DNA of 64,000 nucleotides from Psammoneis japonica (lineage: Eukaryota): positions 124,001-188,000 of the forward strand of contig QPGO01000096.1 of the NCBI GenBank assembly GCA_008632985.1. The letters run 5' to 3'. Every line of letters starts with the position of its first letter. Position 1 is the stretch's first letter. This document shows positions 12,946-44,100 of the stretch, one piece after another. Made by a program: the position numbers and the translations under genes. The notes beneath the pieces were generated by a model, which ran no database searches, had not been told where the DNA came from, and worked only from the letters and a program-made list of their open reading frames with translations.

Positions 12946-14730
12946 CCCCTAAATCTCGAGCCGCCTCGAAGGGACCCCACCAATTGAGCACTTTTGGTGC
13001 TCTGCAGCGCCGCGAAAAAAGCACGCGTCCCAGCAACCTTGCCATGATGCTTTCAGAATGTTCGTCCCCTCCCACTTCCGACGAAGAAGCGACTGACGGT
13101 GCTGATGTTGTCAACCCCACTGCAACAGGCAATGTTGTTGAAATTGCCGTCGCAAGCCCATTGCTTCCAAAATCACACCTTGTTTGCTGACACTCTGTTT
13201 TTTCAGCTCCGCCGCCTGCCGAAGCTTCTGGCATGAATGACAACGCCGCTTCTGCCTTTCCCACATCTGCCACGCCCGAAACGTTTCCCAACCCGGCTGG
13301 TGCAAGAGGCAATGGTGTCGCTTTGTCTCTCATTGGCCCCAAACTGATGAAATCATTTGGTGCCAACTGGCACCATTTTTGTGTTGCTGCGCAGCGCCTG
13401 CCACTCATTCTGTCACCAACACCAACGCAATGACCAATGTTCCAGTGGATGACACCCCCGGTGCCTTTCCTGCTGCGCACGGTCCATCAGGTGATGACAC
13501 ATGTGTCATGCATTGCTGTTGTGTGCCAAAAATGCCAATGGCACTGTTGCACTGTCTCACGCCATTTTTGCTCATGCTCCACAGTGCATGCCACTGCTTC
13601 TGTTGCAAGAGTGGTTCATCAGAAACAATGAGCTGAGGGGAGCAAAACAGAAAGACGGTCCCATGTGCCAACGTTGGCAGGCGATGCATCATCTCCATGA
13701 AGCGTTTCATGTGAGATGGATTCTCGTAGACCTCACCCAAATGAAAGCCAGCAACAGAGCCATGGCTGTGCTGTGGGGAGGCTCTGTGCATTGATTTCCG
13801 GTGCTGGTTGGAGCCAAGCGACAGCAGGGGGACTGCGGCAAGGACAACGCCGCGAGTGCAAACTCCAGCAACATCTCAAACAAGCGATTTGCCACCACCT
13901 GTGGGTCGGACTGGCAGACAAGGTCTGGCGGAACATTTGCGAGAAGACTCAATTGAGCTGGACCTGACCGCGGTCTGCCAACCATGTGGATGCTTGCCAA
14001 AGACGTTGACAGATGCAGTGTCGAAAGTTTGGGAGGCACAGGTCGAAAATGGGTTGTGGCCCGCCATGGTGCAAGCAGTGGCATGCACTGTGGAGCATGA
14101 GTGAAAATGGCGTGAGATGGTGCAACAGCACTGTTGGCATTTTTGGCACACAACAGCAATGCATGATGCGTGTGTTGTTGCCTGATGGACCAGGCGCAGC
14201 AGGAAAGGCACCGGGGGTGCCATCCGCCGCAACACTGGTCACAGCATTGGCGTTGGTGATAAAATCAGTGGCAGGCACTGCGCAGCCACAGAAAACACAA
14301 AGGTGTTAGTTGGCGCCAAACAACTTCGTCAGCATCAGGCTGATGAGAGACAAAGCAACACAACCACCTGTTGCACCAGTCGGGTGAGGAAAGGTTCCGG
14401 GCGTGGCAGCCATGGGAAAGGCAGAAGCGGCGTTGTCATTCATGCCAGAAGCTTCAGCAGGCGGTGGAGCTGAAAAAACAGAGTGTCAGCAAATGAGGCA
14501 TTGTTTTGGAAGCAACAGGGCTGCGACGGCAATTTCAACAACGTTGCCTGTTGCAGTGGGTTAAATGTCATCAGTGCCATCGGTCGCTTCTTCATCAGAA
14601 GTGGGAGGGGACGAACATTCTGAAAGCACCATGGTGAGGTTGTTGTGCCGCGTGCTTTTTTCGCGGTAAAGAGACGGCTGAAAATTGGTCAATTGGTGGG
14701 GTCCCTTCGAGGCGGCTCGAGATTTAGGGG
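12946..14730. mobile_element. Foldback-like element with ~655-bp inverted arms around a decayed RecQ-type helicase fragment (hypermutated block 3)
   Basis: 12946-13599 is the reverse complement of 14073-14730, with termini CCCCTAAATCTCGAG...CTCGAGATTTAGGGG. The spacer reads on the minus strand VRPTGGGKSLV*D...VPLLSLGSNQ...TVFLFCSPQ. Confidence 0.75.
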
Positions 14731-21859: not shown

Positions 21860-23760
21860 ATGCATCTTCACATTTCACACCAAGCACCAAAATGACAATT
21901 TTTTTGACAGGACGATGGAGAACAACGAGACAACAATGTGGGGTTGGAGTGGTTCTCGCCATTTGTGACACTCAGTGTGTGAAAGCAGATGCCATGGGTC
22001 AATCGAACACAAGAGGCAAAATGGCCACAGACCAGCCAAACTGCTTGTTTTGCATCTGAGATTTTCTCACAAACACATGAATGGCTTTCATGTGTGTGGC
22101 TCCCATTGCCGCCGTTGCACATGATGTCGCCACACATTCCGTTGTAACCAACACAGCATTGGCGAGACTCATCATTGCTGTGGTTGGAGAGCCATGGGAC
22201 ACCATCTCACAGCCTCTTTTTTGTCTCATGCCCATCAGCACACAAGCAAGAAGCAGAGAAGCAGTGCCAGGCGCGCAACAACACGGTGGTTCAAACACGA
22301 AGTGCCAAGCTGACAAAACATGCCAAAAAGTTGTTTGAGGTGCTTGCTGCAAGTCAAAAGAAGGTGCTTCCATGCAGCGACAAGGAGCTCATGACAGCTC
22401 TTGTCAACACAACAGATCCAGAGAAGAGTCCGTGACACTTCAAGTTTCCTGGGGCCAGTGCCGCCGGCACGTTGCTTGGTGAAGGTGGCTGTGGGTCATC
22501 AGCAGAGTGTCTCATTGTGAGTCTGGATGCGAAGTGTCGCTCAAAGGGATCAGCATGTTGAGTCAGTGTTGTTGGCATTGTGCAAGACAACAGATTGAGC
22601 CACAGGCTTCTTTTGACCATCCAGGTGTGGTTTGTTTGCATGGGTGGCATTTCTGTCCCACAGCGGATTTCAGCGATGCCCCACGCAGCTCAGAAGAAAG
22701 TGACACCAATTCAGCAAGTGATTGGAGCTCAGAAGAAAGCAGCAACAGCATGCTCGCTTTCTTGCTTCAAAGCAGAAGATGCCAGTTTCCCAAAGCATTC
22801 ACCACAATTTTGATCTTGGAGCTCTGCCCCAATGGCTCCTTTGATGATCTCCTCCTCTCAAAAACTGCTGCCTCAAGGAGAGAAAGACATCACTCACCAC
22901 ATGGAGAGCATTGCCTCCTCGATGCATCTCTGCTTGCGCACTCAGTGCAAAAAGTCATTCATCGAGATGTCAAGCCCTCAAACATCTTGCTGGTGGCCAG
23001 TGGAGCACCAAAGATTTTGGACTTTGGCTTTTTCTGGTTAGAGACCCAAAGCCCAGTTGCTTTTCACTCTGTCAAACTTCTGGTTTTGGAGCTCCTGAAG
23101 TCACGAAAGTTGGGTGTTGCAAGGATTTGGAAGGACCGGGTCATGACCAGCATGTCAACTTGTGGAGCCTTGGCATCACTGGTTGCTGCCTCTTGGTGGA
23201 CAAGTTGCCATTTCCAATCTCTGACCTTGAAGTCTCTCAACACACCTCATTGGCTTTTCTGGAAAAATGTGCTCTCCACACCAGGAATTTGGTGTGTGTC
23301 GTGCTCAGGCCAAAGACAGCAAAAAAGAGAGTTGATGGAGAAAGCGTTGCAGCAACCCCATTTTTGTCAAAACCTTCATTTTTTAACACTTTTTTGTGAG
23401 ATTGGCCTGAGGTGGGCCAGGAATGGCTGCTTCAGGCTGGAAGCCTTGGACTTGAAGCTCCCTCAGCTTGAATTTCCTCCTTTTGTGTCTGAGGGTGCCA
23501 AAGACTTTTTCTGGGGGCGGTGGTCTGTTGCAGGCCAACCCAGGGGATTGCAGCATGTCCTTGGACAACATTCCAAAGCACCCCTGGATCCAAAACTTCA
23601 GCAAGAAACAAGTTTGCAGGACAAATGACTTTGGTGGAGAGAGAAAGAGTGTGGCAGGGCACAAAACTGTGAAAATGGTTGGTTTTTGAATGAAGCCACA
23701 TTTTCAATTTGCGAGACGACGACAGTGCAATGGATGCATGCTTTCAACACTGAAAGATTG
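21860..23760. other. TpA/CpG-depleted hypermutated block 4
   Basis: TA very rare. The 373-aa ORF 22507..23628 contains no Tyr. Confidence 0.85.
22440..23628 (+). pseudogene. Ser/Thr protein kinase pseudogene (Aurora/CAMK-like)
   Basis: LGEGGCG, HPGVVCLHG, IHRDVKPSNILL, DFG, APEV, VNLWSLGI, KLPF, FPPFVSEGAKDF, KHPWI spread over several frames. Confidence 0.8.
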
Positions 23761-24264: not shown

Positions 24265-27200
24265 ATGGACACCGCTCAGGTATCGCTTGCTCATCGCCAG
24301 TCAAGCTCTTTTATTATTGATCCGGCGTACTGTACTCCTACGGTTGATAGAAGTGGAGACTGTCAGGAAGAAAAATGGCACTACGGTGATGCAGAATTAG
24401 AATGCTACCGCCTTGCTCTGCTGCGCAAACGAGTAACCGGTGCAGAGCTCAATGTCTATTACCCAGGATCCTACCATATCCCTGTATGCAAGGGATTCTT
24501 TCGTTTCGAGGTGAAGTCACGCGATCAGAATATTTCGTTGCGGTCAAACGGAAAAGTGACTGTAAGGGCTGGGACTGAGGTCGTGTACGAGTCGGAACAA
24601 GATGATTATGATACGTGTCCTGACACTCTTCACAACGTCGTCCTCAGAAACTGCAAAGAAACTGATTCTGGAGTATGCATAGCGGTACAGGTCATTACTG
24701 ATCAAGATAACAGTCCTCCCGAGCCACCTTGCCTCTGTGTTATTGCACCTGCTCCTGCTACACATTGTGAGTGGAGCACCACTGGCACATCCAACTGGTC
24801 TCCCACAAAAATATTCTCGGCTCTGAGCCCCCTTTCTCCTCCACATCTTGAAGAAAAGGCTAACCTACAGATAGTGAGGCCCCAACGACAAATTGGGGAC
24901 CATGTTTATGACTTTGGTTGCGAGTTGCTGGGTCATGTGGTGTTTGAACTGCCGCAGGATTGGGATCATGATACGGTTCAATTGCAGGTCGGAGAGACTA
25001 TCCAAGAAGCGCTAAATTCGGATCCAAAGCTTCGGGAGCAGTCGACAGCAATCGTCAAGACAAACGACTTTACGCAAATGTGGCAAAGCGCTCATCTTCT
25101 TGCATTTCGTTACGTAAAAGTGCAGGCTTCAGATGTGTCTTGCAAGGCTCATTTTCATCCTGTGCAATACCATGGAGCATTCGCTGCCTCGGACAATGTG
25201 CTTACTAAAATATGGATGAGTGCTGCATACACGCTGCGACTGTGTATGCATGACTCTTTTATTGTGGATGGAATCAAGCGGGATCGTTTGCCGTGGACAG
25301 GTGATCTTGCCGTGAGCCTCCTTGCCAACGCCTATACTTTCAATGATAAAGAGAATGTTCGGAGAACTTTGACTGCCCTCGGAAGGAATGGTATCGAAGA
25401 ATGTGATGTCAATGGCATTGTAGACTACTCCTTGTGGTGGATAGTAACCCAGGACTTATATCAGTTGTACTATGGTGACATGGATCATTTGAATCGAGAA
25501 TGGTCAAGAATAGAGGATGCGGTTAATTGCCTTATAAAACGTTGCAGCGACGACACGGGATTCTTGGAGATTGATAAGGATAGGCACTGGGTATTTGTTG
25601 ATTGGGTTGATAGTGACAAGTCAACTGCATTGCAGATTCTTTTTTGGTGGGCTTTGGAATGCGCAGCAAAGCTGGCGAATAGACAGAATCATCGTCCCAT
25701 CGCCATGCAGTGGCGGAAGTGGCAAGATAAAGTAAAGGAATCCCTTGTAGAGCTCTGTTGGGACAAAAATGCTCGATTATGGCTTGGGACTCCCAACCAA
25801 GGTACTGATTATTCAAGGCACGCGAACATATTGGCTGTGATATCTGGTTTGTCGTCCAAGAAGAATGATAACATTGCCAAGGCACTTCTTGGGACAGCGA
25901 TAGCTCCAGTCGGAACTCCCTACATGAAGTTCTTCGAGTGCATGGCTTTGACATATTTATCTCAAGACGGTATAGGCGAAATGCGTAGCTACTGGGCGGG
26001 CATGTTGGCAAAGGGAGCTACCACATTTTTTGAGGCGTTCGATATTTCAGAGAACGATGTGGCCTCTTTCTATGGAAGACGCTTTGGACGCAGCCTTTGT
26101 CACGCGTGGAGTGCGGGCCCAGCACAATTTTTCCCGGCCACGATCCTTGGTATCCGCCCACTTCAAGATGGTTGGAAAGAATGGACGTGTAGGATTAACC
26201 TTGATGGTCTAGATTTTGCGTCAGCGTCGGTGCCAACACCCTTCGGGCGTCTGGAGGTGGAGGCCTCGGCGAGCAAACTCGAATTGCTGTGCCAAATGGA
26301 ACTACCTTCAAGGTAAGGATGCATCATATGCTGGACCAATGATGTTGGAGTTCAAACCAGAAGATCTTAGGAGCACAATTCGTCGACGACGATACCTTGA
26401 GGCTTGGTCCGCGCCATACAAATTGGCATTACTATCCCTACCACGTTATCCATCAAGTCCGCAGATAAGTGAATTGATATCCAAATGACTGATGTTCCTA
26501 CCGTCTACCAACTTCCAAACGACGAAGTGGTATATGAGCTTCATTGGATTTGATGGAAAGGGTATCAGTCGTTTGTTGCCGAAAGCATGACCTGGTGACG
26601 TGGACAAATCCGATTGGCTATGGGATACGGAAAGAAGGTGATTTTGATTATGGCGGCCGAGTTCTCGGTGCATTTCTTTATGAGGATTACAATGTTGGAT
26701 CACGCGTGTCCTGAAACGCAAGGATGGCAAGTTTTGGTCTTTGTACGGAGCATACGAAAGAGGGGAGGCTATGAAATTGATCCAGGTTACGAAGGCTTAT
26801 CATCCAGCAATGATGGTCTAACATGGGAGCGTGCAAAGGAGGACTCTATTCTCTCGGTGCATAGTCCTGATGCTGGTGATTGGGAAAGGAGCTCGATCTA
26901 TCAACCGTGGCTTTTAGAACACAATGGTCAATACTTCAATTTCTACAATGCAAAGCAGACGCCTCCTTGGACTGAACAAATCGGACTAGCTGCGTCAGAA
27001 GATCTTTTCAATTGGAAAAGATACGAAGACAATCCTGTTCTTGCGGTGTGCCCCAACACTTTCGATTCTCAATTTGTTGCTGACGGAAAGGTGTTCCGGA
27101 CGGGAACAAATGGGTCATGTTCTACTTTGGCGTGGGTCCGACCTGGAACGTTGGTGCGCATATTCAAGTAGCTTTTTCCATGGATCTGCTACATTGGCAT

Positions 27201-27392
27201 ACCGAACAGACAACCGCTTTATGACGCCGGTGGTCATCCAACCGGTCTAGACAAGGAGCACGCCCACAAGATTTCTCTGATATGGAATCCTGCAATGAGA
27301 CATGGTACATGTATTATTGCGCAGTCGGCAACAAAGGTCGTGGCATTGGACTTTTGACAAGCAAACCAATCGATGGCAGCCTACCGGTTTAG
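24265..27392 (+). CDS. Alpha-L-rhamnosidase (GH78), apparently fused to a C-terminal five-bladed beta-propeller glycoside hydrolase domain; no introns seen
   Basis: YDFG.EL.G, AFRYV, DGIKRDRLPWTGD, FVDW, GATTFFE, SLCHAWSAGP, VPTPFG. Downstream fragments (WYMSFIGFDG, SNDGLTWER, IYQPWL, DNPVL, WYMYYCAV) continue through frameshifts to TAG 27390-27392. Confidence 0.8.
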
Positions 27393-27439
27393 GTATGGCA
27401 CTGACGTAGGCTCCTACCAAATCCAAGGAACATGAAACC

Positions 27440-28850
27440 AGTCTCTTTCACCTTCGGGTATTTCCATGGCTTTACTTCACAGCGAGATGTCCGTTGTTCC
27501 CAAGCTTTACGTATTCATTTTCTGCACGCGCCCGGGTTGCTCCGATGCCAAGTTTGTTATTCAGCTCGACCAGTCTCCGTATCGAACAGTCCCCATTCCG
27601 AATCATGCATGTTTACCATTTTCGCACGGCGCGGTTACCCTGGTGCTCCCAAAAGATTGGCTGTGGCGTTCTTGCTCGTCTAAACCGATGTAAAGCTCTC
27701 GCTTTCAAGTTTCGGGATTCTCTCTCCTTCAAGAAGAGACGGAAACTAGCTGCCACAAACATCATATCTTGTAGCTACAATGTCGAGCATGATCCACGGC
27801 TTGTGATGAATGCGTCCAGGGATGGTGGTTACGCATTTTCCCAGCGAATGAAAAAGGGAGTTGCAATTCCGCCCTCGTGAACCCGCGCTCTTGAGCAACC
27901 GAAATGCGTATTTGATGCGTTTGCCCATAGAAGATCATAGCTCTAATAAAAAGTTCAATCCGCCTCGCAACCTGCACTTGAGCAGCCGAAACGGCGTATT
28001 TGGTGCGTTTGCCGATGAAAGATCATGGCTCGTTAAGCCCCGGGGTTCTAGTAGGATTGTTGCCGACTATTGTATGGTTGTGTCCCGTCGTTAGCAACAG
28101 TGCCATAGAATTGCAGGCCAATGACCTCTTCCCCGCACTCTTTTACGGACTCGGCACATCCGCCATTATCAGAGAAGAGCATTAACGGTGTTGTCAAGCA
28201 CATCTTTGTCTTTAGAGCCTTCACAAAGCGACCAATGCCAAAATCCATTACATCAATCATGGCTGCATACGTTGCCATAAGGAGCATGATTCCAGTCCTT
28301 GTAATTCGCTTCTTTCCCAGGTGTGGCATTGATGTCAAGTGGAGAACAAGCCCAACGGTTTTTAACAAGGCCCATTTGCTTTGGTCTCTCACCCATTGTC
28401 ACTGGAGCTCATCCAGACTGTGTTTACATTTGCCTTGGTGTTTGGACATCACCTCTGGTGGAGCATGAAGTTGCCAGTGAGAGGAGCCAAGGAACACCAC
28501 ATGCAGAAAGAAGGGCCCACATGCACCATGAAGAATGTGATGCACTTCATCATTGACTGCATCAGTGTGGCAGTGGTTGCTGGGTTTTTCTGGCTGGGCT
28601 TTGGTGTTTTTAATGAGTGGTGGCAGAGATCACAACAGCTGCCTGCTCCCCCTGGGATGCTGCAGTGCTCACCAAATTCTTGCTGCACAGGCAGTGCACA
28701 GCTTTCATTTCCAGCCTTTTCTGATGCAGCACTCTGGCAAGTGCGGGGAAGGCAATCTCCACCATGGTGCTGTTTCCCACACTCACATGCATTTTGCATC
28801 TGCTGGTTTTCACAACTTCTGCAATGTCCACACCTTGGTGTGCTTTTCCA
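27440..28850 (-). pseudogene. Arylsulfatase (S1 family, bacterial AtsA-like) pseudogene, 5' half hypermutated
   Basis: YAAMIDVMDFGIGR, FSDNGG, NTPFR..K, HEGGIATP, IFWEHQGNRAVR. Upstream, decayed PFFLH...HWQLHAP...KHQGKC and IPGGAGSCCD. Confidence 0.8.
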
Positions 28851-30800
28851 AGGCCGTGGTTGTGTGCCGTGTGCACAACACCAGATTGATGTGAGCAAAG
28901 GGACTTTTGATGCCAGTGCTTTGGGCAGGAGAATTCTCAAACTTGTCCTTCCTTGCACATTTGATGACTGAGAAGATCTGATGTTTCTGTTGCCACACCC
29001 ACTGTTGCACCTTTTCCAGTGTGCAATTTGGCACGCCACTGTGATTTGACTTGGCTGGTTGTTGGCACCAGCACTCATCTTCCCTGAGTTGCTGGGAGCA
29101 CAGCAAAGCAATGCTTGGCAAAACATTCCAGTGATCATGATGGCCCTTGAAGTGCTTGGACTTTTTGGCGGGACTCTCTGGAGCACTGCTCAGCTCAGCA
29201 TTTAACTGTGTGCTGGTGCGCTGCTTCTTTGTGCTCTTCTCTTGGTTGCCAAACAACATTTTGTTCACATCTTCTCTTGCCACATTGTAAACTTTTTTGC
29301 CCAAGACCATCTTTCTCCAGCCACACTTTGGAGATGAGATGGTGCAGAGAGTCCCAAACAATGTTGGCCCAATGTTGGCCCCACAAGAGGTTCCAACTTC
29401 TGCTGGTCATGTCGGGTTTGTGAGTCTGAGAGCCTCACCCACAAACAGGCCATCTGCTGCATGCACTGGACACACTGCAGCAAGCTTTTGATGCAGCTCC
29501 ATGTCTTTCCCAACTCCAGCGGCGCATGTGCACAACAGCGCTGCTGCATTTCTTCAATGTGGGGGCACTTGCAGAGCTGTGTGGCTTGCTTTTCATAATC
29601 TGGGGCAGCATGTCCAGCACAGATGGCTCAAATTTGCTTTCATGGCATCAAGGAATGTGGTGCTGCCACAGCACACATCTGCAGCCACTTTTTGCATGGT
29701 TTGCGTCATTCAAGCAACAGCCTTGGTCCTGTCTTCAACATCACACTCCAAGCTGGAGTCAAAGTCAGAGAGATGTGGTCTTTCAGAATTTGAAGAAAGT
29801 CTGCTGCTTCAAGACCACAGCAGCCAGTTTCTGGTGGGTTGTTCATTGCAGCTCTCATTGGCCCAGCCAAGTCCGTGTCTCTGGAAGATGCTGGGCTTTT
29901 CCACCCTCATCAAGGGGCTCGAAAGAAACAAGCTTTTGTGCTGATCCATCATGCGATGGCTTTGCTTCTGAGTGTGCTTTCTGTGTTATGCCCCAACACT
30001 GTGGCAAATCCCTGATCACCACAAGCTTGCAATGCTGTCAAGTGCAACACCTGTTTTCTTCATTGCCAGAAACAGCTCTCCACAAATGGGGTGCCAGGAC
30101 AACACAGTTCATGCTGCACACTGAAACAAATTGGCCATGCCCACAAGCATCCTGTGCCTCTCAACACCCTGTGTTTAAAGAGTTGGGTTTTGCTCCTGAG
30201 GCGAGACAGTCAATGACTCATGCTCTTTTGACAAGCTTTTGAGCTGCAAAACAGCGCTTGCTTGAGGAGCTGATGGCCGGCATGACAACGGCAATGAGAG
30301 ATCACCAGCATTCTGCAAATTAGTTGACGCAGCTTGCAGCTGACAATCATGAATGAAAACAATTTGTGCTCTTGGCATGAGAGAAAACAGCTTGATGGGT
30401 TTCTTCTTCTTCTTCTCTTCCTCAAGTCCAGTGTCTTCTTGTTGTTTGCTCTGCTCCACACTTTTCCAACAATGTACGGCCATGCCATCATTTGTCATCT
30501 TGTCAGGGAAACACTCATCAGCCAATGTCTTCTTGGCATTGCAGTGCATTTCTTCATCTTGTTGCTCTTTGGCAGTTTTCTCTGGGCCAGGCGTGGGGCT
30601 GCGACATTCTTGTTGAGTCTGGTGCTGAAAGAGTTGGAGACAGCATCACATCGCCAAACTCAGGATGGAGTGGTGGGTGTTCAACAAAGAATTGAGCCAT
30701 GATGGAAGCAACAGTGCCATTTGTGGTGCCCCCTGCATTTGCAGAGAGATGAGAAATGGGAAACGGAGGATGCGTCACTTTGCTTGCTGGCCAAAGCGAC
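28320..30800. other. TpA/CpG-depleted hypermutated block 5
   Basis: Very few TA, TG/CA excess. Overlaps the 5' half of the sulfatase and unidentified decayed sequence. Confidence 0.85.
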
Positions 30801-31039
30801 CCACGTAACTTGACATTCATCTGAGAACTCATCGCAAAAATTCCAAATTCCAAAAGCCAACAAGCGCGCTCGTCCGTCCACCGACCGCAGCATGACCAGC
30901 ATCATCGCACGACCACCGCAGTTTCCATGATGAATGACATGACCGCAGTGCATAGTCTAGTCTAGTCGATGCTCTGCTAAGCATCTCCGACGAGACCTCA
31001 ATAACTGGTTGCAATTTTCGAACAGAGCATTCAAATCCA

Positions 31040-33867
31040 ATGTCATCCTCGCAAGACTTGTTGTCGTCGGCAGTAGAAAGCTCTCTGTCATTACGACTCG
31101 ATTCGGATGTTTGTGATTACATTACATCCCTGCTCACGGACGATCCACACGATGAGGATGCACGCGAGGCAGTCACGGCTCTGGTGGCTGGCTCTCTCGA
31201 AGACGAGGACGCTGACGAGGTTTGTTGTCAATTCTTTCAGCTCTTGGATTTTGGTATTGTCGGAAGTGATGCGAGTAGTATTCCATCCGAAAAAAAGGAC
31301 TCTGGATCGCAGCCACTTCGAAAGTTGGAACAGTCAGTCACCATGAAACACCACGACGTGGAGACGTTTGCTTCCGGTCTATCGGCAGAACCCGTGGACG
31401 ACGTCATGGGAGATGATACTACTGGAAAACAATCACAGATTGCCTCGTTTTATGCCAACATGATTGATCCATCCAAGAACGAGGCAGCCATGTCGGAACG
31501 AGCACGACGCAAAGCACGACAACGGGCTCTGAGACTCGAAATGGAACAACAAGAGCGACAGAGAGAAATTCAACACAATTTATCGTTGCTAGAACAAGAT
31601 GAGAGGGAAGAAAATGAAGAACAAGCCATGCTCAATGCTTCTTCTGACAATGCCTCCAATGTACACTTTACCAATTTCGATTTACCCAATCTCCGGGGTG
31701 GCGGACCGGACTTGTTGCAAAACACATCACTCACGCTCGCTTGTGAACGACGTTACGGACTCATGGGACGCAATGGATGTGGCAAAACAACCTTCTTGAC
31801 TCATGTGGCTACACGACAAACCGATGGTGCTGTCCCCAAAAATATGAGCATGCTCTTGGTACGACAAGAAATCATGGGCAACGACTGGACGGCTGTCGAG
31901 ACGGTGCTTAAGAGCGATGTCAAACGAGAAAGTGTAAAGAGATTCATTGCTTGGTGTGAAGAAGAATTGGAAAAGTTGGAAAATGGTGCTGCTGTCTCTA
32001 CGAAAACGATTAGTACAGACGAAATTGAAAAAGACAAGGGCAGCGCTACTACTGGTGCTGCAAACGAAAAGCCACCATCAGCTTCCAAGGGACGTCAAAA
32101 GTTGCGAGATCGAAAAAAGCAAGCCATGCTGAAAAAGCAAAAGGCTGCCAAAGGTGCGACGGATAAAGAAGAACCGTCGTCCAAGGAATCCATTGAGAAA
32201 AAGAAGACACAGCTGTCGCAAAAAGCTGGCACGTGCCTACGAACGACTGGCTCAAGTCGAACAATTAGACGGTGGGGATCCGGAACCACGAGCCCGTAAA
32301 GTATTGGCCGGACTGGGATTTTCAACAGAAATGCAAGACAAGCCCACTCAGGAATTATCGGGTGGATGGAGAATGAGAGTGTCACTCTCGTGTGCACTGT
32401 TTGCCAGTCCGTCACTATTACTTTTGGACGAACCTACCAACCATCTGGATCTAGAGTCCGTGTTATGGCTGGAGCGGTATCTAACAACAACCTTCAAGGG
32501 AACGCTCGTGGTGGTATCGCATGATCGGTACTTTTTGAACGAGGTTGTGACAGACGTGGTGCATTTCTACAGAAACAAGCTCACGTCGTATCGTGGAGAC
32601 ATTTCCAACTTTGAGGCAGTCCGAGAAGAAGAAAAGCAACGACAGCTGCGTCTTCGTGAAGTACAAGAATCCAAACGTGCTCACTTACAAAAGTATATTG
32701 ACTTGCACGCACAAGCTGGAGAAAACGGAGTCAAGGCTGCGAGACAACGAAAATCGAAAATGAAGAAACTAGACAAACTCGGTGTCATGGCACAAGAGGG
32801 TAAGAAATGGAAGGCAAGCTATGACGGCGATGCAGAACAGGTGGAGGAGTTTGTAGAAGATGAACAGGTGGTTTTGAAGTTTCCGGATCCTGGATCTTTT
32901 GAAAATGATATGGTACGACTTGAGCAAGTATCCTTTGGATACAGCGAAGACAAAATCTTGCTCGAGAACGTAGACCTGGTACGTGATACCGCTGTGTCTC
33001 GTCGTTTCTCTATCTCTTGATTGACTCACCTAGTGTGCTTGCATTTTGTATCATATACAGAGTATTGGTTTGAAATCTCGAGTGGCGCTACTCGGAAGAA
33101 ATGGTTGTGGAAAGAGCACACTGATCAAGCTTGTGGTTGGGGCGCTACACCCTCTCAAGGGTAAAGCGGTAAGTTCAGTTTTGTATGGTTTGCCGAGATC
33201 CAAGATATTGGGGTCGAGTCAATTTTCATTCCACACCATTGGAGCTGACTTTGATTGTATACTTTGCTTATGTGGCATGTAGACAATTGATGGTCGGGCC
33301 AAGATTGAATACCTTGCCCAACATCAGTTGGAACAGCTTGATCCCGACGGTACACCAATGCAGACAATGATTGATCGATACCCTGGTGATGGCGGCAATG
33401 AGCACATTCTTAAGCTTCGTAGGTATCTGGCCAACTTTGGCCTTGGAGGAGAGATTCTTCCCAAGCAACGCATTCACACCATGTCAGGAGGACAAAAGTG
33501 CCGATTATGTCTGGCTTGTGCCATGTATAGGAAACCACACTTGCTTATTCTTGATGAGGTAAGGCACTAGAAGAGCATGTGATGAATCTTCCTTTCCCGC
33601 CGTAATGTAATTCACACCGCGCACTTTTTTGTTGCAACGTAGCCAACGAATCACTTGGATCTTGAAACGACCGATGCTCTCATTGAGGCTATTCGAAACT
33701 TCCAGGGTGGGGTACTGCTTGTGAGCCATGACCAGCACTTGTTGACAAGTGTTTGCAAGCATCTCTACGTCTTACAAGACGGCAGCTTGGAGCTCCTGAA
33801 GCAAGGAATGAGCAACGGCGAAGCTTTTGAGGCATACAAGAAGGCTGTCATTCAGGGTAGAAGATAA
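31040..33867 (+). CDS. ABC-F family ATPase (GCN20/ABCF3-like); 4 exons
   Basis: Two cassettes: [26 protein letters not shown] and [23 protein letters not shown]. Introns 32979-33060, 33169-33282, 33559-33642. Frameshift near 32220. Confidence 0.92.
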
Positions 33868-39495: not shown

Positions 39496-40981
39496 ATGAT
39501 GAAGATCTCTGCTGCTCTTCTAGCACTTGCGCTCGCGAGCTCGTCGTTGTGTGTTCAAGGACAAACCGTGTTGGAAGTTGTAGAGGACTCTGCCAACCAC
39601 ACCACACTTGCAGCCGCAGTTGACGCTGCCCAAATGCGATCTCCGATTTTTTGGATGACGATTCAGCTAGCTTTACGTTGTTCGCTCCTGACAATAGCGC
39701 CTTTGCTACTCTTCCAAATGGCACCGTAGGGCTCCTCACTTCTGAACCGTGGCAGAACCACCTCGTTTGTGTTCTTCTGGGACATGTGTATGGTGGTGAG
39801 TCTTCGTTGATCGTACTTGCAAGACATTTTGTGTTGTGCTTTTTAGTGCTGCTCACTGACTCCTGCATTCGTGTTTTTGCGTTTCTGCAGATGCGGCCGT
39901 CAACTCATCTTCCATTACAGATCCCATCTCCGTCGAGTCAGAAGAGGACGGTTTCTTCTTGAACTTGACGCGCAGCGGTGATACCGTCAGTGTGAATGGA
40001 ATTCCCGTCACGACCCCTGATATTCCGGCTTCGAATGGAATTATCCACAGCATCTCCGCAGGTGTTCTTCTACCTGATTGTGTTGCCAAGAATATTGCAG
40101 ACGTCCTCACGGAGTCCGGCAACTTTACAACTCTTCTCGCGGTGGTCAATGCTGGCAATTTGACGGGCCTTGTCACAGCCCCTCCTACTCCTGAGGGACT
40201 CACTGTTCTAGCGCCCAATGATGAAGCGTTCGCCGCGGTCCCTCCAGAGGTTACCAATTATCTCCTTGGCAACACCACGGCGCTTAGGGACGTTCTCTCA
40301 TACCACGTTATCGAAAGCAACTTTATCCCCACCGAGGATGAAACGGTCGAGTCTGCCCTAGGAGAAGATCTTGAGTTCACTGTTGATGACGATGAAATCA
40401 CTGTGAATGGAAACACCTTAGTCGAGGTTACAACGCTTGCATCGAATGGTATCGTTCACGAGATCGATGCGGTGTTGCTGCCCCCCAATTTCGCACTCCC
40501 GACGCAAGCTTCGGAAATGCCGTCGGCTGCTCCTTCATCCCTAGCTACCGGTACTAGCGAAACGCCATCCCAGGCACCCACGGTCGAAGGTGCGACGACA
40601 TCCCAGGAACCCACGGGCGAAGTTTCTTCAGAAGCGCCGTCCCAGGCGCCCTCGGTCCAAGCCTTTACGGGCATGCCATCCCTGACGCCTACCGAGACGG
40701 CCACAATCTCCGTAGCTCCTACTAGCACCCCAGGGCCTACCGCGATGGCCACCTCCGCATCTCCTACTAGCACCCCAGGGCCTACCGTCACGGTCACCAC
40801 TTCCTCCGCGTCTCCTACTAGCACCCCAGGGCCTACCGTCATGTCTACGGGTGCAGGTTCACCCATGCCTACCGCGACTGTAACTTCGTCCATGCCCTCC
40901 ATTACTCCAACGACTTCTGGAGCTACCAAGGCCAGCGTGTTTGCTGCTCTTGTTGCAGGAATTGTGACTCTCTTTTTGTGA
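39496..40981 (+). CDS. Fasciclin (2x FAS1) cell-surface protein with Ser/Thr/Pro-rich stalk and hydrophobic (GPI-like) C-terminus
   Basis: Signal peptide; TLFAPDN.AF, ASNGIIH.I..VL, TVLAPNDEAF, LSYHV. Intron 39796-39890. CCTACTAGCACCCCAGGGCCTACC repeated three times at 40718-40838. Small frameshifts. Confidence 0.88.
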
Positions 40982-41199
40982 ATCTTTTGAATCCGTGTCA
41001 TTTTTGTGAAGCTATTGTGACTTTAAAGTAATAGTGCTTGTTTTGGTTGTGTTTGAGATTTCCAACTACAATGCATGAGCTACAACACATGAACTAGTTA
41101 CATGAATTTCGAAACAATGGATGCCTCCACTGTAGTCGGCTGTCCAAATGAAAAATAGTTTCTCTGAAAGGGCTTTCAAGGCTACAAGCCTCTTTTCTT

Positions 41200-44100
41200 T
41201 AATGCCCTCCCAGCTCCTCATCATGGCAGGAAACTTCATGCTTTTGACACGGAATGGACGCCTTTGGGCACCCATCCTTTTTTTCCACCTGCTCTGCTAT
41301 GTTGTGCTACAAGTGCTCTGCCTCTTTACATGTTGGGGCTGGGTTGGGTGGTGGTGTAGTGGTTGCACAGCTCAAGCTCGGTCCCACAGTGAACTCATGT
41401 CGCAAGGAAAGGTGTGTTGCTTGGGAGGCATTCTTCCGCAAAGACTGCACAGCAAATGACACAATTGTCAGCATGGATCAGTTTTTGCAACAACACACAG
41501 TCTTCTTCATGCACCACAAGGCCAGCAATTTCCACTGGCATGATTTTGGTGCTTGCATCCTCAGCTGCCGGTGCTGCAAAATTCCTTGCCAGGAGCATCA
41601 GTCAAAGTTGTTTCAGGACTGCCATCCCAGGCGCCTTCAGTCAAAGTTCCTGGTGTGGGAATGCACCCACTCCACTCCTGCCAGCACCTTGACACCTGTT
41701 GTCATGGCCACCACCTCCTCCAAATCTCCTGCTGGCACCCTGTCACACCAACCCCAATGCGCCCACTGTCATGGCAGTCAACATCAGCTGCTCACCCACA
41801 GCCTCAGGTGCACGTGTGTTTCTGGTGTGCAACCTCTCACACTTGTTGTGTCACCCTTCTCAGGTGGCTTTGTGCTGGGTCTCACAGGACAGTTTTGGCC
41901 ATTTCTGCCAATGGCACACCCTCATTTCAGCATGACAAACAACAGCTCTTTCAGAGAATGAGAAACACATGCATCAACGCCTTGTGGCCCACATGCTTGT
42001 TGTCCTTTCTGGCAATTTTTTGCAGATTCTGCCAATTTTTGACACAGGGTGCAGCACCTGCTCTGTGTGCTTCTGAAACAATCGCCCACAACCGCTTTGT
42101 CAAATTTCTGAACTGCTTTCATCCACACACATCTCAGCCCTCGATGCTCTCTTTGTTTCTCTCCCATTGGCCAACGGGCCAATTGTTCTGCACTTTGTGT
42201 GTTGCAAGATCTGTCTCTGTTGTGGCACTTGTGAGTGTGCACCAGAAACACCCTTCTTCATTGCCCTTTGATGGCCATTCATCTGCTGCATTGATTGGTG
42301 CTTCTGCACAAGATCTGGTGTTGTTTCGGCTCATGGGAAACATTTCCACTGATGCCCAACTCACTTGTCATTAGACTCTCCTTTTTGCACTTGCCAGCTC
42401 TGAACAACCCTGCTCTTGCTTTTGGCTTGTCAAGCTCTCACTGCTTCAAGTGGCAAACCTTTTGCTTTCACTCCAGCACCCAGAAGTGCCAAGCTGAGTG
42501 TGTTTCTGTTGAAGGCAAGGTGTTTTGTTGGTGGCGGCAATGTTTTTTCCAAGATCTTGCAACATTTTTGCAACCCATTCTGAGTGCAACTGTCCTTTGC
42601 TTTCATTTTGTGGATCTTCCAGCATGTCCAATCCAAAAGAAAGCAACAACCACCTTCTTCCCATGTGTTGTCAGTTTGTTCCAACCAGTTGTCTCTGGCG
42701 GGCACCACTGCAAGGCAGCAACATGACTGGCCAACTGCACCAGCCTCTCCTGCATCCCCAGTGGGGTGAGCTGGAAGTGTGGGTCAGCCGGCGCAGCTGG
42801 GCAACAAAGGTGCAAGAGAGCTGCAAACTGGGTTTGAGTTTTTTTTTGCTGTCAGTGCATGCTGGTGCAGGGTCATCCATGTCCACAGGGAGGCTGCAAC
42901 TTCATCCATGCCCTCCATTTCTCCAGCAACTTCTGGAGCTGCTGAGGCCAGCATGCTCGCTGCTTTTGTTGCAAGAGTTGTGGCTGTGTTTGTTTTGTAA
43001 ATCTTTTCAGCCCATGTCACTTTTGTGAAGCCACTGTGACTTCAAAGCAACGGTGCTTGTTGTGGTTGTGTGTTTGAGATTTTGCCAACTGTGGTGCATT
43101 GTGAGCTCCAGTTGCATGATTTTGAAACAATGGATGCCTTCACTCTCAAGATCACTGTTCAAACAAAAATGGTTTCTCTAAAAGGGCTTTCAAGGCTGTG
43201 TGCCTTTTTACTTTGACACCACTCTTCAGCTCAGCATCGTCACAGCAGGAAGCTTCATTGTTTTTTGTGACCCCCTTTGGCAGTTGACCATCCTTTGCCA
43301 CCTGCTCTGCTGCCATGTTGCACAACATTGCTCTGCCTTTTGATGTGTTGGGGCTGGGTTGGCGGCAGTGTGGGTGGCTGCACAACTTGAGCTTGGCTCC
43401 CCACTGGAAACCCATGTCACAAGAAAAGGTGAGTTGCTTGTGAGCTGCACTTTTCCAAAGACCACAAGTGTGGATCAGGTTTGGCCACAATTCACAGTGC
43501 ACTTTGTGCACAACAAGGCAGGCAATTCCCGCTGGCACAATTTTCAGTGTTTTTGCATTGTCAGCAAGCTGCTGGCACCACCAACAATTGTCTTGAGAGC
43601 CTTCAGTCAAAGCTCCTGTGGCGGGAGTTCTGTCCAAGATGCCTCCCCGATTGTTGCAACCTCTGAATCTCCCACTGGCTTCCCATTGCCTGTCACCATG
43701 GCTGCCACCTCCTCCAAATCTCATGCTGGTGGCACCCCATCAACTGCCCCAGCACCTGTGCCGTTGTGGCTGTGGGTGCAGGGACACCCATGCTTTTCGA
43801 AGCAGCTGTGACTTCATCTGTGCCTTCATTTTTTCCAATGACTTCAGGAGCTGCCAATGCTGGTGTGCTTGCTGCTTTCATTGCAGCAGTTGTGCTTCCT
43901 CACCTTTTTTTGAATCCTTGAGCCTGTGTGCTGCTCTTTTGTGAAGCTGTTGTGTGGCTTTGAAGCAACGGTGTTTGTTTTGGTTGTGTGTGTTTGAACT
44001 TGCCAGCTGCAGCGCCAGCTGCATGAATTTTGAAACAATGGATGCGCCCACCTTTCTGATCCACTGTCTGAAGGAAAATGATTTCTTTCCCAAAGCTCAA

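Follow-up and report, generated by a model that had tools for sequence, protein, structure and literature searches.

A dead arylsulfatase duplicate is crossed by the abrupt edge of a mutagenic domain, inside which TA and CG steps have been converted almost completely to TG or CA and outside which the same pseudogene keeps them at background level. The pattern is very probably the product of YR hypermutation that is bound to position and acted on a gene already dead. The edge lies in a window of 64,000 nucleotides (G000:C98:124001-188000, the whole stretch of DNA analysed here) from a 91-Mb eukaryotic assembly. An earlier note on this stretch had proposed that the mutagenic domain covers just part of the sulfatase gene, and the fates of TA and CG steps by position bear this out.

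Two-state segmentation of TA and CG content across the window calls nine TA/CG-poor blocks, 17.3 kb in total, all of them with abrupt edges. Pooled over the nine blocks, TA O/E is 0.04 against 0.58 in the rest of the window and CG O/E is 0.22 against 0.97, with GC content the same in both. The distance from block edges to long ORFs ranges from 92 to 6229 bases and follows no rule, by a crude measure in which introns and frameshifts split the ORFs. At the far end of the block that overlaps the sulfatase (Table 1), CG recovers at about 30590-30800 and TA is scarce until about 30950, unlike at the sulfatase edge. Elsewhere in the window, another block (22483-23625) is filled by a purged protein-kinase relic, and an inverted repeat (12946-13599 and 14073-14730, about 660 bases, 84% identical) spans a block with TA loss and milder CG loss (O/E 0.54). 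Positions 40836-41547 and 42864-44086 comprise a Fasciclin 3' end and its decayed duplicates in the next block.

Table 1. Features at and around the edge of the mutated domain (window coordinates).
Feature	Position	Strand	Remarks
Glycosidase gene, GH130/GH32-like, convergent	26376-27371	+	sole long copy found; candidate active neighbour
Sulfatase pseudogene, 3' part, about codons 266-546 and stop	27414-28308	-	outside block; dead; TA and CG at background
Tandem duplication, units of about 90-100 bases	27846-28031	-	inside 3' part; TA and CG kept
Edge of mutated domain	28280-28393		from site lists and change-point likelihoods
Sulfatase pseudogene, 5' remainder, codons 66 to about 265	28309-28900	-	in block; TA and CG to TG/CA
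Purged block overlapping sulfatase	28309-30797		from segmentation; TA O/E 0.06, CG O/E 0.17
Relic adjoining gene break	28911-29263		one other copy at G000:C17, about 808.6 kb, likewise purged
ABC-domain gene	31040-33020	+	first ATG 243 bases from the block's other edge

A search of the genome for an intact paralogue of the window copy found one on the same contig, about 110 kb away (C98:263406-265046, DNA search). It is an intronless ORF of 546 aa that matches the Pfam Sulfatase family above cut-off (PF00884, E 8.7e-59) and carries the CxPxR motif, the C, P and R of which are invariant in 30 of 30 aligned rows. Set against the S1 formylglycine-dependent sulfatases, the paralogue is a full member and the window copy a pseudogene without codons 1-65. 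The DNA search returned the paralogue as the only close relative of the window copy in the genome; a protein search gave 60 matches, none of which, besides the paralogue and pieces of the window copy, scored better than 5e-19. Among the matches listed, the nearest named relatives of the sulfatase include diatoms and a Planctomycetes-labelled record, the named eukaryotic ones being Attheya, Thalassionema, Cyclotella and Thalassiosira; judged by these, the source of the window is probably a diatom.

The window copy aligns to codons 66-546 and the stop of the paralogue, from 28900 down to 27414 on the minus strand, so that its 5' segment does align to sulfatases, from codon 66 onwards. The protein motifs quoted in the earlier note all lie on this strand, in differing frames. 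Missing with codons 1-65 are the start, the metal-binding Asp pair and CxPxR; for these codons the paralogue is the only close match among the 60 genome matches, and nothing in the window rises above shuffled background. What is left contains stops and indels and has no open frame, and it carries insertions as well as deletions of 7, 10 and 13 bases that the base-drops of the assembly do not explain. The suspected local duplication of the NTPFR..K..EGG segment is real, with units at about 27944-28031 and 27846-27943.

Both halves of the window copy have decayed without constraint. A comparison restricted to columns that 13 or more of 14 close homologues conserve gives 44 differences in the window copy and one in the paralogue for the block half (97 columns), and 20 and two, respectively, for the outside half (117 columns). 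Pairwise dN/dS between window copy and paralogue is 0.53 in the block half and 0.47 in the outside half, close to the expectation for one neutral and one constrained branch, which argues that both halves are unconstrained. For most of the time since duplication no constraint has acted on the 3' half, yet it has kept TA and CG. The retention of TA, CG and Tyr that had been noticed there thus stands, but this half too is a neutrally decayed pseudogene. Because the two halves are equally dead, the spared 3' half included, the mutator did not kill the sulfatase gene.

Positions 28309-28900 hold 3 TA steps where 24 are expected (P 7e-8) and 4 CG steps where 36 are expected (P 8e-12), the expectation being taken from the rate in 27420-28308. 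With the paralogue as reference, only 1 of 29 TA steps is kept in the block half (13 have become CA, 12 TG and 3 other) and none of 25 CG steps (12 CA, 11 TG, 2 other), as opposed to 20/30 TA and 29/45 CG kept in the outside half (Fisher p 2e-7 and 2e-8, respectively). The strands are balanced, at 13 CA versus 12 TG for TA and 12 versus 11 for CG, and such an equal effect on both would argue against editing of RNA or of a retrocopy intermediate. Change-point likelihood places the edge at about 28280-28390. The last converted sites are at 28322-28325 and the first kept CG is at 28307-28308, with a lone TTAA survivor inside the block at 28363, and the TA and CG edges agree within about 45 bases. 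A CG 'halo' beyond the edge was considered and rejected (5/14 versus 6/31, p 0.28).

At the codon level, none of the 16 aligned Tyr codons of the block half is kept (9 are now Cys, 6 His and 1 Gly), and 4 of 5 are kept outside. The change had been read from the letters as TAY to CAY or TGY in the 5' half with Tyr kept in the 3' half, and the paralogue and homologues polarise it in this direction. In an alignment of 29 homologues, chosen among 120 listed, the window residue occurs at just one of the 16 Tyr positions (codon 222, where 3 of the 29 have His), so the homologues do not simply share His or Cys with the window copy. Where Tyr is invariant in 29/29 homologues, all six positions in the block have lost it and all three outside have kept it. 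Arg codons of the CGN type behave similarly: CG is kept in 0 of 5 in the block half (two are now Gln, two His, and one is interrupted by a gap), and 9 of 10 ungapped codons outside still encode Arg. The attribution of Arg changes to CG loss is directly seen for Arg to Gln and Arg to His; the stop in DELQ*QW, however, is a Gln codon changed from CAA to TGA and involves no Arg codon.

The two halves provide a control of equal age. In a comparison that leaves out columns near gaps, transversions relative to the paralogue amount to 28/533 in the block half and 31/689 outside (p 0.59), and transitions at non-YR steps to 22/237 and 23/338 (p 0.34); YR transitions amount to 82/296 and 28/351 (p 3e-11). 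The equality of the first two classes indicates that the halves are of the same age and differ at YR steps only. Transitions of every kind at first seemed raised in the block, but this effect was gone once YR steps and near-gap columns were removed. Saturation makes the estimates for the block half lower bounds, with at least 1.73 hits per site at TA and 1.99 at CG, compared with no more than 0.14 and 0.28 outside; the excess over background is thus at least about 12-fold for TA and at least about 7-fold for CG. A 3' half that is dead and yet spared therefore rules out three causes of the edge: selection acting on the sequence, repair templated by the paralogue, and a homology trigger on the gene pair.

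The letters themselves are supported by contigs from two sequencing runs of one sample, possibly the assembly's own source. Contigs over 28506-29662, 28083-28348 and 27635-27869 show 0 substitutions relative to the window, the first being a contig of 1161 bases that backs the letters of the block. They exceed the assembly in length by 4 in 1157, 4 in 266 and 8 in 250 positions. Across 26500-30950 the assembly misses single bases relative to short contigs at 3-4 per kb, and up to 8 in 250, so that one-base frameshifts and deletions in the window are unreliable. Other contigs differ from the 3' half of the window copy at 20/249, 15/237 and 7/159 letters, the paralogue counts over the same stretches being 33, 29 and 17. 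We read these contigs, 4-8% divergent over 27463-28348, as a second haplotype, the divergence of which is about half of the distance between window copy and paralogue. One contig presumed to belong to it skips the tandem duplication (joint at 27943-28038), and this haplotype, judged by length, also seems to be frameshifted. Elsewhere in the genome, a dCMP-deaminase-like gene lies in a 3.3-kb stretch that occurs in two copies of 99% identity (L032 and L033, on C41 and C317), possibly a haplotig.

Homology between the window and the paralogue locus runs past the sulfatase as far as 26872 and is interrupted by a gap of 264 bases on the paralogue side. The long glycosidase copy sits in the window and only glycosidase remnants occur at the distant locus (L004 7160-7350), for which reason the window is probably the source locus of the duplication. 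The present state is one of reciprocal loss, with the glycosidase kept in the window and the sulfatase at the distant locus. The history suggested by these comparisons, which largely demonstrate it, is that a segment spanning the sulfatase and the glycosidase's 3' part would have been duplicated about 110 kb along the contig, that the distant sulfatase remained functional, and that the window sulfatase would soon have lost constraint over its full length together with codons 1-65, apparently unrelated DNA now standing at its break.

The glycosidase ends about 940 bases from the block edge. Contigs show insertions at 26756 and 27097 relative to the assembly, and the frameshifts of this gene are probably assembly deletions and the gene itself is probably intact. 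Within 24265-28900, a rhamnosidase (PF17389), the GH130/GH32-like glycosidase and the sulfatase form a cluster without introns in the alignments; the rhamnosidase frame may extend into the glycosidase, and in one homologue (P0010, which clusters with a Thalassionema record) glycosidase and sulfatase are fused. The group is possibly an old bacterial-type carbohydrate cluster.

On the other side, the relic starts about 11 bases from the gene break. Its first segment (28911-29062) matches the C17 copy at E 4e-27 with YR steps pooled, the best shuffled control reaching 1e-9; the second (29169-29263) matches at E 4e-10 only, but is collinear. Between 28900 and 30800, a Pfam search of 18 open frames gave one sub-cut-off DUF match and nothing else, phmmer against 1.84 billion representatives gave 0 matches, and the best Atlas value, 0.80, is uninformative. 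DNA searches of the same genome with this stretch returned the window alone and protein searches the C17 copy or none, in a setting where purged copies of the relic would be difficult to detect. The earlier note had the mutagenic domain spreading into the gene from a neighbouring repeat. The adjoining DNA does have a second, likewise purged copy, but neither an identity nor further copies emerged; such a spread is plausible and partly supported. The data fit spreading out of the relic and equally fit exclusion by active genes nearby, and the two are mutually compatible.

The footprint is that of a region-bound mutator, which struck both strands of a 2.5-kb domain reaching about 590 bases into the dead gene, turning CG and TA into TG or CA and leaving other sites alone. 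We suggest that this domain is a silent CG-methylated chromatin island, like those that diatoms place on repeats; the foreign DNA probably seeded it, and active genes at both ends would have set its limits. In this account, CG loss would be deamination of 5mC. TA loss would call for a reaction of its own, for which enzymatic deamination of A to inosine in DNA at TA is the likeliest candidate; it may run about 2.7 times faster where a pyrimidine follows. Targeting by chromatin domain is likely, and the likeliest of these parts; a seed on the adjoining relic has slightly the better of the argument, and adenine deamination as the chemistry of TA loss is evenly poised. The account as a whole, a dead duplicate meeting a region-bound mutator on a silent CG-methylated island with 5mC decay and TA deamination, is reasonably probable.

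The context of surviving TA steps in the nine blocks bears on the reaction at TA. They number 3/1010 in RYRY, 19/2206 in mixed and 23/959 in YYRR contexts, and TA retention (0.014, 0.053 and 0.203, respectively) fits two per-strand rates with a ratio of 2.7. Counting against such a flank rule, it agrees with the direction of change at only 7 of the 13 polarised sites that are informative and disagrees at 6 (P about 0.11-0.23 under the fitted preference). A survey of the genome gave 9 deaminase matches and 27 unclassified cytosine methyltransferase (PF00145) matches, and singled out no candidate in either set.

By sequence, A>G on one strand is indistinguishable from T>C on the other, and the TA change in the same domain could instead begin at T, through oxidised thymine paired with G or through T:G repaired towards C:G by a glycosylase in methylated DNA. 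The sequence outcome would be identical, and the coincidence of the TA and CG edges within about 45 bases would suit a single 5mC-linked repair system. T:G repair should, however, also turn over TG, and flips between TG and CA number 11/93 in the block, close to the 6 that background change and subsequent purging would give (P 0.04). Moreover, CG and TA part at the block's other edge, as described above, and the hypermutable regions of Bigelowiella carry nearly TA changes only, 230/231 in the accessible text of the preprint (bioRxiv 10.64898/2026.01.13.699255). We consider a start at thymine unlikely and retain adenine deamination as first choice, with the thymine route second.

More doubtful still is a recombination or conversion junction between wholly purged and unpurged pseudogene alleles. 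A crossover would produce the same edge, and divergent alleles do coexist over the 3' half, as the second-haplotype counts attest; against it, all nine blocks of the window are abrupt-edged, and repair from the paralogue itself is excluded by a 3' half that is still 12% divergent with transversions at the same level. We rate RIP-like mutation triggered by homology of the sulfatase duplicates as very improbable, even though the gene has two copies on a single contig and the transitions are saturating and on both strands. RIP gains TA and leaks into flanks. Here TA is removed, not created; over the matching stretch the paralogue still has its 29 TA and 25 CG, and neither the 3' half, just as much a duplicate, nor the tandem duplication has been purged. 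A homology trigger for the sulfatase pair is refuted by the spared paralogue and the spared 3' half, although a RIP-like trigger may still have acted on the adjoining two-copy relic. Finally, uniform mutation with selection keeping TA and CG in a useful 3' half, or a base-calling artefact, is scarcely credible: single-base deletion errors do occur in the assembly and some frameshifts are accordingly false, but such errors leave the insertions and the deletions of 7, 10 and 13 bases unexplained, and the reading is refuted by contigs that confirm the substitutions in both halves and by the conserved-column replacements of the 3' half (20 versus 2, with dN/dS 0.47).

The nearest published match, and the sole matching paper found, is a preprint on Bigelowiella natans, a rhizarian, the accessible text of which describes TpA hypermutation of integrated viral DNA (TA>TG and TA>CA, both strands) measured in mutation-accumulation lines, in viral regions of 25-186 kb where TA is partly depleted (Rho 0.45), and puts adenine deamination forward with the enzyme not shown (Mettrop et al., bioRxiv 10.64898/2026.01.13.699255). 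That portion of the text contains none of the words CpG, diatom, spread or boundary, and it reports neither CG loss nor sharp edges. As in Bigelowiella, TA in the window block has turned into CA (13) or TG (12) at 25/29 sites, and the mutation is region-bound, at least about 12-fold over background and saturated. In contrast to the TA-only change there, the block also loses CG (25/25), and it spans 2.5 kb with near-complete TA loss and an edge within about 100 bases. The Bigelowiella target is viral; here, in a probable diatom, 590 bases of the block are a dead host gene and the remainder gave no identifying match, and the process is read from its footprint and not from a measured rate.

For the CG component, the available text of Hoguin et al. 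2023 (PMC9998398) describes isolated CG-methylated islands on diatom repeats, DNMT5a-dependent in Phaeodactylum, and that of PMC6604790 gives CG as the most mutable step in Phaeodactylum. Decay of 5mC in DNMT5 islands resembles the CG>TG/CA change at 23/25 block sites but leaves the TA loss unexplained. RIP, described in the accessible preprint text as homology-directed and C>T (bioRxiv 10.64898/2026.01.13.699255), resembles the block in that dead, repeated DNA carries transitions densely on both strands. Unlike in RIP of ascomycetes, where both copies are mutated, the paralogue and the 3' half of the window copy are spared, and half of the block changes are A>G/T>C, with TA lost. A literature search in an incomplete collection found nothing on TA-plus-CG purged blocks in diatoms, and TpA is absent from the available text of PMC12344493. 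By analogy, the process appears to work like a Bigelowiella-type TpA change joined to CG decay, and not like RIP.

In most purged blocks mutation is confounded with selection, since what has been spared alongside is functional DNA. At the sulfatase, a single dead gene of uniform age runs across the edge, and its intact twin supplies the reference; the edge is thus set by the mutation process, and duplication alone is no trigger. This indicates a mutation process aimed at a stretch of chromosome, not at a gene or a duplicate, and makes the sulfatase edge a precise site for asking which chromatin mark changes at the border. If adenine deamination is indeed the reaction, the mutator would amount to a naturally occurring adenine editor of chromosomal DNA, and would widen the range of a process so far reported from one unrelated alga. 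We tentatively suggest that a genome-defence mutator of this diatom lineage could edit adenine in chromosomal DNA at TA, recruited by silent chromatin and not by homology, with a fixed border kept by active genes; as an equally tentative corollary, this putative mutator might be a chromatin-guided counterpart of RIP with opposite chemistry, spreading a few hundred bases into host DNA. On the practical side, an excess of Tyr to His/Cys and Arg to Gln/His changes in diatom gene models can flag dead copies.
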